Source: a bacterium
GTDB lineage: Bacteria; Patescibacteriota; Microgenomatia; Curtissbacterales; GWA2-41-24
Assembly (NCBI GenBank): GCA_021813125.1
Contig: JAKALT010000005.1
Coordinates: forward strand, 107 to 64,106
Reading direction: 5' to 3'
DNA length: 64,000 nucleotides
Shown here in pieces: positions 21 through 5,100 of this stretch. Every line of letters starts with the position of its first letter. The first letter of the stretch is position 1. Below the pieces are notes generated by a model. That model did not search any database and was not told the DNA's origin. It saw only the letters and a program-made list of their open reading frames with translations. The position numbers and the translations under genes were made by a program.

Positions 21-160
21 TGTTAAAAGTTGGAATATTAATTATGCTGTCCCTTATTTAGACTTTGATTTTAGTTTTGCCGCTCCCAAGCCCAGATACG
101 AGAGAATAATTACCCAAAGAGATGCGTTTGGAAGGATAATACATTCAAAAGCACCATCCT
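21..160 (+). repeat. Copy A of a ~135-bp direct repeat family (conserved core cccaagcccagatacg); 35 bp upstream of the DUF3800-like gene
   Basis: Near-identical (~88%) to 4966..5100 and related to 1697..1855; shared blocks tgttaaaagttggaatattaatt, ctgtccc(t/a)tatttagactttga, tcccaagcccagatacg.gag.ataattac, attcaaaag. Confidence 0.8.
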
Positions 161-194
161 GATTTAGATGTGTTAGGTCTGTTAAAATTATTCC

Positions 195-770
195 ATGTCA
201 GTCAAAAAATTATATTGCTATGTCGATGAGACCGGACAAGACACAGAAGGCAAACTTTTTATCGTTTCAATTGTGGTAACAGGTGAGGAGAGGGATGAAT
301 TATTCAAACTTTGCGAAGAAATCGAAAAAGACAGCGGTAAGGGAAAGTTTAAATGGGGTAAAGCGGAGAAGAATAAAAGGTCCGTTTACTTAAAACGCAT
401 TTTTAAAACTAAGATTTTTAAAAGTAAGTTACGATATTCTGTCTTTCGTAATTTAAGGGATTACGATTTGGCTACAATCGTGGCAGTTTCAAAAGCGGTG
501 CATTTTAAAGAGCCGACGTTAGGGTATACCACTTTGGTGTATGTTGATGGTTTGAGTAAATCAAAGAGACGTGAGTATGGTTCACAGTTGAGAAAATTAG
601 GCATACCCACCAGAAAAGTGCAAGGTGTGACAAAGGACGAAAATAATGCACTTACAAGATTGGCGGATGCGATCGCTGGATTTGTAAGAGACGCGTTATT
701 GAAAGAGCGGAAAGATTTAGATGATCTTTTTAAGAAAGCTGTAGATGAGAAGTATCTAGTTGAAGTGTAG
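195..770 (+). CDS. DUF3800-like protein (N-terminal Y-x-D-E-T/S-G motif, CYVDETGQD)
   Basis: 191-aa ORF; N-terminus resembles the DUF3800 signature (YIDESG-like); no other recognisable domain. Confidence 0.45.
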   Translation: MSVKKLYCYVDETGQDTEGKLFIVSIVVTGEERDELFKLCEEIEKDSGKGKFKWGKAEKNKRSVYLKRIFKTKIFKSKLRYSVFRNLRDYDLATIVAVSKAVHFKEPTLGYTTLVYVDGLSKSKRREYGSQLRKLGIPTRKVQGVTKDENNALTRLADAIAGFVRDALLKERKDLDDLFKKAVDEKYLVEV

Positions 771-928
771 GCATAAAAAAACCACCCACTAGGGGTGGAA
801 GAGCCTACTTTCGCCTGAGGCGAACAGCTTACCGATACGGCCAGTCTTCGGCTCGATTTTGGTTATTTTATATCATAAAAACATTTAAAATGCAAATTAT
901 GGATTTCAAATGTGCCTAAAGCTAAGAT

Positions 929-1678
929 ATGAAACCAGCGTATAATCTTGAAAAAATAAAGTTTGCAACAGATGGCCCAACATTTGAACGAGCTGTGAAT
1001 TTATATGAAAGCGGTAAGGTGACGAAATTCGAAAATAACGGTTTTACTTGTACCGCAATTGTTTTGGGGACTGAGCCGTACGAGGTTTTTGTCTCAAACC
1101 GTAATTATGACCAGGGTAATTGTACTTGTTATTTGGGACAGAGCGATACTTTGTGCAAACACATGGTGGCTGTTGCATTGTATGCTGTCATGGGCGGTAA
1201 CCCATTGACGGATGAGGACAAGAAGCAAGTTCAGGCGCCTTCTTGCAGTGGGAAATTGGGAACATTGACGGGTGAGCAGTTGTCTGAAGCCAAAAAAGCT
1301 ATTACTTCCGATATGCGCTACATAAAACCATATATTGGTCCGTCAAATAAATGGTTTGCTTATCAAGATTCATTACTCGAGGGTTGTAACCGTTTAACCG
1401 CTTTGGTTTCTGATTTACCTGTAAGCGAACAAGCAGCTAAATTGCTTGTTGATTTATTATTGCATCTTGATTGTAAATTGTCCTATGGTGGGGTTGATGA
1501 TTCTGATGGTACTGTTGGCGGTTTTATTGAAGAGACGGTAGAAGTACTTAAAGAGTTTGCCAAATTTGACTCCTCTTGCATAAAGGCTTTCGAAAAACTT
1601 AATAACAGAGAAACTTGTTTCGGTTGGGAAGAACCGCTGTTAAAGTTGATTGAAAATGTTGGAGGCAAAAGTACATAA
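929..1678 (+). CDS. SWIM-type zinc-finger protein
   Basis: C-x-C-x(n)-C-x-H motif: GNCTCYLGQSDTLCKHMVAVALYA; 249 aa; co-oriented 158 bp downstream of the DUF3800-like gene. Confidence 0.55.
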   Translation: MKPAYNLEKIKFATDGPTFERAVNLYESGKVTKFENNGFTCTAIVLGTEPYEVFVSNRNYDQGNCTCYLGQSDTLCKHMVAVALYAVMGGNPLTDEDKKQVQAPSCSGKLGTLTGEQLSEAKKAITSDMRYIKPYIGPSNKWFAYQDSLLEGCNRLTALVSDLPVSEQAAKLLVDLLLHLDCKLSYGGVDDSDGTVGGFIEETVEVLKEFAKFDSSCIKAFEKLNNRETCFGWEEPLLKLIENVGGKST

Positions 1679-1696
1679 GTCAGGTTTTAGCTAGAA

Positions 1697-3817: not shown

Positions 3818-3942
3818 AAAAACTCTATATGTCTGACAGAAATTTGTTGATGTAATGCCGGAAAAGGGCAGAAAAAAGGAATATATAAAATTACTGTAGA
3901 TGGTGGGTCATAAATCAGTTTCTGGATTGCTATAATTAGCTG

Positions 3943-4644
3943 ATGCCTAATAGTGATCTAGAAGAAAAAGCAAAGAAATGGGTTCGAGACAATACAAATA
4001 TTCTCATTGAAAAATTTGCTGACCCTGTAAAATTCCCTGGCGTATCTAATCCTTTCACAATTTTTATGGCTGGTTCCCCAGGTGCTGGTAAAACAGAATA
4101 TTCCAAGTCGTTTATAAAAGGCTACGATCCTAATACAAAAATCGTTAGGATTGATGCTGACGAAATTAGGGATATGATCCCAGATTACACTGGCGGCAAT
4201 GCTTATAAGTTTCAAGGGGCAGCCGCATTAGGAGTTGAAAAACTTTATGACCAAGTTCAAAAGAAGCATCAAAACGTTATTGTTGATGGAACTTTTTCTG
4301 ACTTTAAAAAAGGTCTTCAAGACGTTGAACGCGCCTTGCATAGGCATCGAAAGGTTGGTATTTTTTACCTCTACCAGGATCCTCTTATTGCATGGGAATT
4401 TACAAAAAAGCGAGAAAAAGTTGAAGGAAGGCATGTTTCAAAAGATATGTTTATAAGTTCATTCTTTTTAGCTAAAGAGAATGTGAATAAAGTTAAAAAG
4501 ATTCTCGGTGACAAAATTGAGCTTCATTTAGTTGAGAAGAATTATACAAATGAGCAAGAAAATACTAAGTTTAATATCGATATGATTGATAACCACCTAA
4601 AAATAAAGTATAATGAACAAGATCTGGAAAGGTTAACTAAATGA
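3943..4644 (+). CDS. Zeta-toxin-family / AAA-like P-loop kinase
   Basis: Walker A MAGSPGAGKTEYSK; zeta-toxin-like blocks IVRIDADEIRDM, NAYKFQGAA, VIVDGTF; 233 aa. Confidence 0.6.
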   Translation: MPNSDLEEKAKKWVRDNTNILIEKFADPVKFPGVSNPFTIFMAGSPGAGKTEYSKSFIKGYDPNTKIVRIDADEIRDMIPDYTGGNAYKFQGAAALGVEKLYDQVQKKHQNVIVDGTFSDFKKGLQDVERALHRHRKVGIFYLYQDPLIAWEFTKKREKVEGRHVSKDMFISSFFLAKENVNKVKKILGDKIELHLVEKNYTNEQENTKFNIDMIDNHLKIKYNEQDLERLTK

Positions 4645-4808
4645 AAGCACTTGATTTCTTGGTCAAGAAAGATAAAGGTACAAACTTCTTCGAACTACCA
4701 GCAAAAGAAAAGAAACGCATAATTAAAAAAGCGGTTCGTGGTTCGAACGAGTTGCAAAAAGAATTATCTAGGGAATACGCTAGATTAGCGGTACAAAAGG
4801 TGTTTTAA
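4641..4808 (+). CDS. Small 55-aa ORF overlapping the zeta-like kinase stop (ATGA), possible partner/antitoxin-like protein
   Basis: atg at 4641 overlaps TGA 4642-4644; translates MKALDFLVKKDKGTNFFELPAKEKKRIIKKAVRGSNELQKELSREYARLAVQKVF; below the 60-aa ORF-track cutoff. Confidence 0.35.
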   Translation: MKALDFLVKKDKGTNFFELPAKEKKRIIKKAVRGSNELQKELSREYARLAVQKVF

Positions 4809-4965
4809 TCCTCGCTCCAAGAGTTTTAAACGTGCTTCTTACAAATTATTAAAAACTACCTCTGGCTGAAATTCGAGCAGCTGGTATTCAAATTAAATTA
4901 TAAGACCAAAACAAAAAGAGCCAAGAGAAATGTTTCTGCTTGGAGTTCTTGCTATAATCAAAAAA

Positions 4966-5100
4966 TGTTAAAAGTTGGAATATTAATTGTGCTGTCCCTT
5001 ATTTAGACTTTGATTTTAGTTTTCCTGTTCCCAAGCCCAGATACGCGAGGATAATTACAGAAAGAGATGTTTTCGGGAAAATAATCCATTCAAAAGTTCC
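4966..5100 (+). repeat. Copy C of the ~135-bp repeat family, lying between convergent gene ends
   Basis: tgttaaaagttggaatattaattgtgctgtcccttatttagactttgattttagttttcctgttcccaagcccagatacgcgaggataattac...attcaaaagttcc. Confidence 0.8.

Follow-up and report, generated by a model that had tools for sequence, protein, structure and literature searches.

Three co-oriented repeats of about 140 bp lie at the left end of a 64-kb stretch of DNA (the window) from contig JAKALT010000005.1 of a bacterium of the Patescibacteriota. These repeats are very probably attL-type junctions, the left ends of defence islands that were moved by a large serine recombinase (LSR) and inserted serially at the start of ychF, the gene of the redox-regulated ATPase YchF. 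Each repeat is made up of the promoter and 5' coding end of ychF (about six codons), set one base out of frame with a startless frame of about 45 codons. The latter, conserved frame is identified by its relatives as the C-terminal tail of a clade of patescibacterial LSRs. The rightmost repeat, copy C, and a short core further right are assigned by their sequences as the attL and attR of an 8.5-kb island that still carries its LSR, and the promoter and first six or so codons of the window ychF are now supplied by that island. In what follows, L-numbers denote contigs and P-numbers denote proteins; coordinates of the features are collected in Table 1.

The repeats and their two reading frames

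A repeat search of the window recovered one family, at 21-151, 1719-1849 (71%) and 4966-5096 (89%), all copies being on the + strand and between genes. A 30-nt core pattern occurred at exactly these three sites, compared with none in 100 shuffles, and an nhmmer profile built from the three copies found no further copy within the 64 kb. An earlier, sequence-only reading of this DNA had described three co-oriented intergenic copies of about 135 bp, with copies A and C about 88% identical. Both descriptions hold, the identity of A and C being 84-89%, depending on the compared span. The same reading had placed copy A near the left window edge, where contig L001 adds 120 bp leftward, and copy C between convergent gene ends, which proved to be those of a 55-aa open reading frame (ORF) at 4808 and a TIR gene at 5117. 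The internal 34-bp duplication that it saw in copy B is a real extra segment, but it measures 33 nt (11 codons, in frame, flanked by two TATTTAGA motifs) and is not specific to copy B, the same long form being present in L007, L012/L019, L026 and proteins P0005-P0007. Long and short tail forms (window 1691-1757; L007, L012, L015, L026) differ by 11 codons between two copies of CCATATTTAGA, and L015 has a 9-nt version of the extra segment. This tail motif, a probable recombinase-binding site, also seems prone to slippage or duplication.

One frame of the + strand is open through all three copies, reading ..SWNINYAVPYLDFDFSFAAPKPRYERIITQRDAFGRIIHSKAPS and then a stop in copy A; copies B and C read closely similar versions. 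Homologues were sought with a codon-degenerate pattern for PKPRYxRIITxRD, which matched a single locus in species genomes and 13 loci in metagenome contigs, all of them true relatives, and nothing in viral contigs. Across 17 copies from 15 contigs, the ratio of nonsynonymous to synonymous polymorphism (pN/pS) was 0.31 in the conserved frame, in contrast to 1.37 and 1.24 in the other two, and the conserved frame showed synonymous switches of Arg (CGT, CGA, AGA) and Ser (TCT, AGC). Because pN/pS is low in a single frame and these switches are synonymous, the repeat is of coding origin. Roughly half of the copies lack ATG, GTG and TTG in the conserved frame, and several have a stop just upstream. 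Called proteins with the conserved domain numbered 58 by profile search, and an exhaustive search gave 291 clusters at 50% identity. With few exceptions, these proteins are small (45-100 aa), unnamed and without Pfam domains, and carry the conserved part at the extreme C-terminus.

A different frame is maintained at the 5' end. In nearly every copy, an extended -10 box (TGnTAnAAT) lies upstream and is followed, after 6-8 nt, by an ATG one base out of frame with the domain. Over about 20 nt this frame reads M-N-L-S-V-G, with synonymous switches in Leu (TTG, CTA, TTA), Ser (TCN, AGT) and Val (GTC, GTT, GTA), and the other frame specifies variable residues there. Many of the small proteins appear to start with MGYE..(W/R)(D/N) because their N-termini are -1-frame readings of the ychF promoter spacer and first codons. 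Across P0001-P0189, starts of the form MGYE.. or MW(D/N).. arise by accident, from the ychF start being read in the wrong frame, and in L024-L026 the ATG of MGYE directly abuts the -10 box. Within the long frame, the nucleotides of ..GTC CCW TMT TTA GA.. are invariant, such that Val is always GTC and Leu always TTA (17/17 copies), presumably because the outer bases of this motif also form a predicted recombinase-binding site.

The long frame and the large serine recombinase

The window encodes one LSR, with Pfam matches to Resolvase (PF00239, 8e-27), Recombinase (PF07508, 1.2e-13) and Zn_ribbon_recom (PF13408, 1.1e-07), and a PHROG integrase match at 9e-75. CcrB is among its nearest named relatives in NCBIfam, at 83 bits against a cut-off of 900. 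The sequence-only reading had noted this gene, 7 kb away, and set it aside; however, the gene ends inside ychF, and the repeats hold its missing C-terminal coding tail. The protein ends in ..RIPLFPSNMGYELKGWN followed by SWVAKCW and a stop, and its last 14 codons are a -1-frame reading of the ychF start. The stop, at 13491, lies within ychF (ATG at 13448), one base behind the ychF frame (..RIPLFPSNMGYELKGWNSWVAKCW, stop).

The long frame of the repeats is found at the C-terminus of LSR C-terminal parts in P0152, P0150, P0062, P0072, P0104, P0158, P0164 and P0186. In these proteins, the zinc ribbon is followed by a coiled coil, then by ..VEVxGHIPL..LGYE..(W/R)(D/N).. and finally by the tail. 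For example, P0152 has a zinc ribbon (YLLTGKIYCGCGHKRIGDG..YYRC), a coiled coil and ..VEVTVHIPVP.., and continues with ..LIPTIEFDFYCYLPNPRITRLITQRDGRGRIVHSKPPRLKV. A phmmer search with the window LSR also located LSR sequence at L027 8844-9758, L028 5761-6204 and L023 16610-17179, in each case in frame with the tail and immediately before it. The complete tail is present in four of the 119 full-length homologues of the window LSR (P0219, P0233, P0265 and P0300). No family or fold could be assigned to the tail by Pfam or by PDB sequence matches; AlphaFold models it as a single beta-hairpin (residues 33-47, pLDDT 81).

The tail-less homologues end much as the window LSR does. At least 75 of the 115 terminate in a -1-frame reading of the YchF P-loop, such as ..SRNSWIAECGKVYAI and a stop, which is G-I-V-G-L-P-N-V-G-K-S-T-L-F-N read one base early, the stop arising from TTT AAT by the genetic code. 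Most of the remainder stop a few codons sooner in the same -1 reading, and a few run longer. Moreover, ychF lies 1.7-1.8 kb downstream of a junction, on the same strand, in L011/L017 and L012/L019. Taken together, these endings and the position of ychF downstream of junctions in three independent loci indicate that one target site is used across the LSR clade. The repeats share a single orientation upstream of ychF wherever that gene is on the contig (the window, L011/L017, L012/L019), and not the random orientation beside housekeeping genes that the sequence-only reading had named as the finding that would speak against its view. Named homologues of the LSR come from Candidatus Daviesbacteria, Woesebacteria, Shapirobacteria, a Microgenomates-group bacterium and Patescibacteria, with one record labelled Nanoarchaeia; one tail ORF is from Candidatus Levybacteria.

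The ychF start and reconstruction of the attachment sites

The target gene is identified as ychF by the TIGR00092 equivalog model (354.7 bits against a cut-off of 279). In the window it begins ATGAACTTAAAGGTTGGAATAGTTGGG (MNLKVGIVG), within ..caaatATGGGATATGAACTTAAAGGTTGGAATAGTTGGGTTGCC (MNLKVGIVGLP..), and the ychF of L011 begins alike with ..tgttaaaatATGGGATATGGAACTACGAGTAGGAATAGTCGGTCTGCCGAATGTGGGG (MELRVGIVGLPNVGKS). The start of copy C, TGCTATAAT-CAAAAA-ATGTTAAAAGTTGGAATA, matches a ychF promoter and start. The gene appears to be leaderless, as suggested by an extended or plain -10 box, a 7-nt spacer (ATGGGAT) and the ATG in the window (13432-13450), L011 (3130-3150) and L024 (800-818). 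In LSR-bearing elements, the LSR codons (S/L)-N-M-G-Y-E form the ychF -10 box (TCAAAT or TTAAAT), spacer and start. In versions without an LSR, the LSR frame is closed by a 1-nt change, TTAAAT to TTAAAAT.

The sole DNA common to attR and copies A and C is a 15-nt core, TTAAA(A/G)GTTGGAATA, at 23-37, 4968-4982 and 13454-13468. In attR, the P arm is supplied by the element and also provides the -10 box, the spacer and the new ychF ATG. In copy C, the left arm has the extended -10 box TGCTATAAT at 4950-4958, followed after 6 nt by an ATG at 4965, and the short frame reads MLKVGILIVLSLI and a stop (4965-5006). The LSR tail runs in the -1 frame (..SWN followed by INCAVPYLDFDFSFPVPKPRYARIITERDVFGKIIHSKVPEY) to a TAA at 5108-5110, and the centre of the core is placed between 4977 and 4978.

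Exchanging the arms at the core yields two coherent parental sites. Joining the left arm of copy C to ychF gives attB as TGCTATAAT-6 nt-ATG TTA AAA GTT GGA ATA GTT GGG TTG CCA AAT GTT GGT AAA TCG, in which a consensus extended -10 box precedes a complete YchF N-terminus (MLKVGIVGLPNVGKS). When the LSR end is joined to the right arm of copy C, the product is attP, which reads ..GWNINCAVPYLDFDFSFPVPKPRYARIITERDVFGKIIHSKVPEY and a stop, a full-length LSR like the natural P0219 and P0233. Because the arm swaps restore both an intact ychF start and a full-length LSR, attP is placed inside the LSR gene. The reconstructed attP has a dyad about GGTTG/GAATA, with the outer motifs AAATATGGGA and TCCCTTATTT.

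Proposed mechanism and alternative explanations

These observations suggest the following mechanism. Elements of a Patescibacteria (Microgenomates-type) clade would use an LSR gene with attP embedded in its own 3' end, such that integration (attP x attB) would sever the last 45 or so codons. The LSR body would be left beside ychF at attR, where its frame would end in the ychF start, read with an offset of one base. The promoter and first six or so codons of ychF would be replaced by the copy of the element, in which the (S/L)-N-M-G-Y-E codons would double as -10 box, spacer and ATG. At the far end of the island (attL) would stand the displaced native promoter and start of ychF, joined to the cut-off LSR tail; this hybrid would constitute the repeat of about 140 bp. 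Copies A and B would be the junctions of two older units that lost, or never had, their own LSR. The anatomy, the two reconstructions and the pattern across the family are shown by the sequences; the order of events, expression of cargo from the displaced ychF promoter and an effect of the tail swap on LSR activity are inferred.

Several points weigh against this account. Both attB and attP are reconstructions, neither an unoccupied ychF site nor a circular attP having been seen directly, and the crossover dinucleotide lies somewhere within GTTGGAATA. The attP dyad is modest, with 16 of 32 positions symmetric (9 of 10 in the outer motif), figures that carry no statistical control. The sequence left of copy A is hidden by the insertion of an IS30-family element. 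Copies A and C have a native-looking, promoter-type left arm without an LSR body upstream. Serial integration of autonomous elements into attR should produce junctions composed of LSR body, P arm and tail, as in L028, L027 and the second junction of L023, whereas copy C and many internal junctions have a promoter-type arm with the LSR frame closed. Two histories could account for units 1 and 2: deletion of the LSR followed by re-evolution of a promoter before the next arrival, or insertion as non-autonomous cassettes.

According to the latter, units 1 and 2 would not be decayed islands but circles of cargo with a promoter-type arm and a relic tail arm, integrated in trans by an LSR. Since such an arm resembles the native start of ychF, every insertion would create a fresh usable attB, giving an integron-like or pseudo-SCC-like platform. 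Promoter-type junctions without an LSR body are common (copy C, both copies of L013, the second junction of L016, L009, L010, L018 and L020), and no LSR remnant was found in window 1-11800, including upstream of copies A, B and C. Units of one or a few genes lie between junctions in L013 and L016, and the outer motif of the tail arm, GTCCCWTMTTTAGA, is invariant beyond what the protein needs (the GTC and TTA codons above), as for a protein-binding site that has been kept. On the other hand, neither a circular cassette nor presence/absence polymorphism was seen, the order being the same in those contigs shown for this strain that reach far enough, and copies A and B look dead here, the arm of the former being destroyed and the core of the latter mutated. 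In addition, the LSR-remnant junctions of L023, L027 and L028 show that decay of autonomous elements does occur. Cassettes of this kind are thus possible, albeit somewhat doubtful, for units 1 and 2.

Two other explanations dispense with LSR-mediated insertion altogether. The repeats might be paralogues of a small leaderless gene whose product of about 50 aa is made by a programmed -1 frameshift from the MNLSVG start into the PKPRYERII.. domain. Such a gene would fit the conservation in two frames, the conserved ATG 6-8 nt past an extended -10 box, the conserved TAG that closes the short frame and the 291 clusters of small proteins delivered by gene callers. Nevertheless, no slippery site or stimulatory structure was found, the domain is contiguous and in frame with LSR bodies, and the start codon of the MGYE proteins falls in the promoter spacer. 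This candidate was dropped once the short frame was recognized as the ychF start and the long frame as the LSR tail, which fully explain both frames, and it is now highly improbable. Even less credible is a generic intergenic repeat (REP-type, miniature inverted-repeat transposable element (MITE) or terminator-associated), an attC-type folded site or a structured RNA, to which the intergenic, co-oriented placement of the copies and the tendency of contigs to break at them would lend themselves. Rfam gave no match at gathering thresholds over the whole window and, up to E = 10 over 1-5400, nothing on the repeats, with two chance-level matches elsewhere. Folding energies of the three copies on both strands stayed within the range of dinucleotide shuffles (z -0.7 to +1.9), and alifold of 12 homologous copies yielded no consensus structure; a GGGAC/GTCCC hairpin is confined to one subgroup of copies. 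A structured RNA, including an RNA motif of the DUF3800 type, was rejected on these grounds. The repeats also have no terminal inverted repeats and are not dispersed in many copies: there are three, co-oriented and all in the island, with a coding pattern of substitutions.

Non-coding or attC-like sites were abandoned as a reading of the repeats, as were the alternatives named by the sequence-only reading, a 3' untranslated region or terminator element and a MITE remnant. An attC-like site would need a foldable palindrome and IntI. The window showed neither a single-strand-folding imperfect palindrome with R/L boxes nor an IntI-type tyrosine integrase with attI and Pc; the sole recombinase in the island is the LSR, and the left neighbour is the IS30-like transposase. 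The integron-like view that no relevant recombinase was nearby is mistaken because the dismissed LSR is the enzyme. A further candidate, that a tyrosine integrase had duplicated the C-terminal end of a large housekeeping gene, was also rejected; a search with the copy C peptide found nothing, and a profile search at first found only small ORFs. Junctions of LSR-moved islands at the ychF start remain the favoured reading of the repeats.

Organization of the array in the window

Table 1. Features of the ychF-associated array in the window (positions are those of the 64-kb stretch)
Feature	Position	Strand	Description or basis
IS30-family transposase gene, 3' end	1-19 (continues left)	+	L001 1-139 translates as ..IAWELNNRPRKVLNFNTPQEILGKELGGRIQTRM, stop
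Copy A, old attL-type junction	21-162	+	ychF-type left arm/core TTAAAAGTTGGAATA (23-37) and LSR tail frame ..NINYAVPYLDFDFSFAAPKPRYERIITQRDAFGRIIHSKAPS
Unit 1 cargo	195-1678	+	DUF3800 protein 195-770; SWIM zinc-finger protein 929-1678; no recombinase
Copy B, degenerate junction	~1684-1923	+	left arm without ATG, core mutated (GCTAGAAAT), long tail (+11 codons)
Unit 2 cargo	2000-4808	+	605-aa protein 2000-3817; zeta-toxin-like kinase 3943-4644; 55-aa ORF 4641-4808; no recombinase
Copy C, assigned attL of ychF-proximal island	4950-5110	+	displaced ychF promoter/start and LSR tail
Island 3, ~8.5 kb	4978-13463		only unit retaining a recombinase
Island 3: TIR-domain gene	5117-6154	-	PADLOC PDC-S66 and ThsB models
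Island 3: HEAT-repeat gene	6151-9138	-	
Island 3: HTH regulator	9207-9413	-	
Island 3: DUF4352 gene	9591-10163	+	
LSR gene, integrated tail-swapped form	11845-13491	+	Pfam, PHROG, translation
Assigned attR	13432-13490	+	P arm ..TCAAATATGGGATATGAAC, core TTAAAGGTTGGAATA (13454-13468), ychF B' arm GTTGGGTTGCCAAATGTTGG..
ychF (redox-regulated ATPase YchF), target gene	13448-14527	+	TIGR00092 equivalog, Pfam, translation MNLKVGIVGLPNVGKS..

The order of repeat, genes, repeat, genes, repeat had been taken for a cassette array by the sequence-only reading, and this is well founded: the gene sets were acquired separately and stand in tandem, with recombination-site repeats as their borders. The layout recurs on unrelated contigs (L013, L016, L022, L023, L027, L028). 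At the left edge, the IS30-like gene ends 1 bp before copy A, whose promoter and the A of its ATG have been replaced. The IS30 call comes from NCBIfam NF033563, the only match (E 0.066), which covers the last 21 positions of the model. Seven contigs carry the region, and all six of those shown break leftward within about 300 bp; the insertion sequence at this edge is probably multi-copy. Copy A has CTG at the position of the ATG of copy C, and its tail stops with TGA at 160-162. The tail of copy B has lost its stop and the frame continues to 1921-1923; because its core is mutated, its ATG absent and the stop missing from the usual place, copy B looks dead, and it looks the oldest of the junctions.

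Cargo differs between the units. In unit 1, the SWIM protein matches the PADLOC candidate PDC-S62 (1.7e-15). The spacer of 158 nt between the DUF3800 and SWIM genes contains a G+C-rich hairpin (CCACCCCTAGTGGGTGG, 782-798) and then a T-run on the minus strand; the hairpin is terminator-like for the - strand, yet it lies between two + strand genes. Pfam, PADLOC and PHROGs gave no match for the 605-aa protein of unit 2. Inside its gene (3451-3494), Rfam matched CRISPR-DR57 weakly (20.5 bits, E 0.6), as a single copy that was judged to be chance. Island 3 additionally contains three ORFs of unknown function and the LSR. When a core module common to island 3 and the other loci was sought, only the HTH regulator matched (L021, weakly). 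The G+C content of the array (1-13400) is 32-38%, compared with 40.7% for the window and 40-45% for the flanking chromosome from 14 kb on, which is consistent with a foreign origin. In the contigs shown for this strain (six of the seven that carry the DUF3800 protein), gene order is the same wherever they reach far enough.

Related arrays at other loci

Arrays with two junctions are present in L013, L016, L022, L023, L027 and L028, and the cargo between junctions is often of defence type. For example, the same platform bears a clear defence-island array in L028, from another organism, in the order junction, M78 and HTH, SMODS, HORMA, AAA, LSR-remnant junction and OLD-type ATPase. Its genes at 852-8446 resemble a cyclic-oligonucleotide-based antiphage signalling system (CBASS), with an M78 peptidase and HTH, SMODS cyclase, bacterial HORMA and AAA ATPase, followed by an OLD/AAA_15-type gene. 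In L013, two junctions flank one secreted-protein gene, and in L016 junctions lie around an HNH-like gene. At L016 9481-11688, a 364-aa gene that is DUF4263/Shedu-like by eye only and the 256-aa HNH-like gene each lie next to junctions, and the start of the HNH-like gene is inside a truncated junction. The second junction of L023 carries an LSR remnant and is followed by an HTH_17 protein, YhcG and HsdR. This small HTH_17/MerR-type protein (17378-17575), of an excisionase-like family and directly after the junction, is a candidate directionality factor; no counterpart was recognized in the window island. Judged by eye, the next gene after the tail is co-oriented and close in about 13 of 18 loci, which is only suggestive that the displaced ychF promoter may drive it.

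Relation to known systems and implications

A close parallel in mechanism and layout is the staphylococcal cassette chromosome (SCC). SCC elements and composite islands of staphylococci are integrated by the Ccr large serine recombinases at the end of rlmH (orfX). The two share LSR-driven islands at the end of a housekeeping gene, tandem arrays with direct repeats, accessory or defence cargo and some units without a recombinase of their own (pseudo-SCC). However, the target here is the promoter and first codons at the 5' end of ychF and not the 3' end of rlmH. The repeats are also longer, about 140 bp instead of about 15-20 bp, since integration at an attP within the LSR gene detaches a tail of 45 codons. 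With the window LSR far under the Ccr cut-offs and a patescibacterial host, the island is not an SCC member. The array also resembles an integron: at one site, promoter-proximal and mostly promoterless gene sets are strung together with recombination-site repeats between them. In contrast to an integron, its sites are double-stranded LSR att junctions, with no IntI, folded attC, attI or Pc.

State-dependent proteins are known from mycobacteriophages with integration-dependent immunity, in which attP lies inside the repressor gene and integration by a tyrosine integrase deprives the repressor of its degradation tag. In both cases, integration alters the C-terminus of an element-encoded protein through an attP in the 3' end of its gene, giving a state-dependent form. 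The altered protein is a repressor in the phages, and here it is the LSR. The "suicidal" integrases of SSV-type archaeal viruses and plasmids likewise have their recombination site within the integrase ORF; on integration the gene is divided, and its fragments remain at the two ends of the element (PMC7253208, PMC8371274). These are tyrosine recombinases acting at tRNA genes, the split inactivates the enzyme, and hybrid genes can arise from fragments of different origin (PMC7253208, PMC8371274). An attP in the recombinase ORF and a gene split on integration are found here as well, but the enzyme is a serine recombinase and does not belong to the SSV family. Because only a short tail past the catalytic, recombinase and zinc-ribbon domains is exchanged, the integrated LSR probably keeps its core.

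The neighbourhood of ychF is itself a known place of integration. One article describes a defective prophage of Streptococcus pneumoniae whose int lies directly upstream of ychF and influences ychF expression (PMC8637289, citing Chen et al. 2019), with attB located between the DUF951 gene and ychF (PMC8637289). That attB does not span the ychF start codon, and the elements and hosts are unrelated. Full-text searches of an open-access subset of the literature, which are weak evidence on this point, turned up neither an LSR that splits its own gene nor ychF-targeting LSR islands in the candidate phyla radiation (CPR).

Tentatively, attP within the LSR gene could act as a clade-wide state switch, in which the free element has the full-length enzyme with its beta-hairpin tail and the integrated element a tail-swapped form, affecting integration versus excision. 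The displaced, leaderless ychF promoter at attL would be captured for cargo, and the site would be reusable because the arm brought by the element imitates the ychF start, with LSR-less cassettes accumulating as an integron-like defence platform in CPR bacteria; this broader picture is speculative.

For annotation, the family of 291 clusters of small proteins (50% identity, no Pfam, often startless) consists of artefacts of LSR integration junctions, and junction ORFs and LSRs that overlap ychF should be recognized as att sites. The elements also provide attP/attB predictions for hundreds of LSRs, of use in genome engineering, and a testable idea that a C-terminal tail modulates directionality. 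In design, they are a serine-recombinase counterpart of the archaeal self-partitioning integrases, with a conserved tail that is swapped on integration. For the CPR/Patescibacteria, whose genomes are tiny and whose mobile elements and defence islands are poorly known, the first codons of ychF emerge as the attachment site of a large LSR clade.

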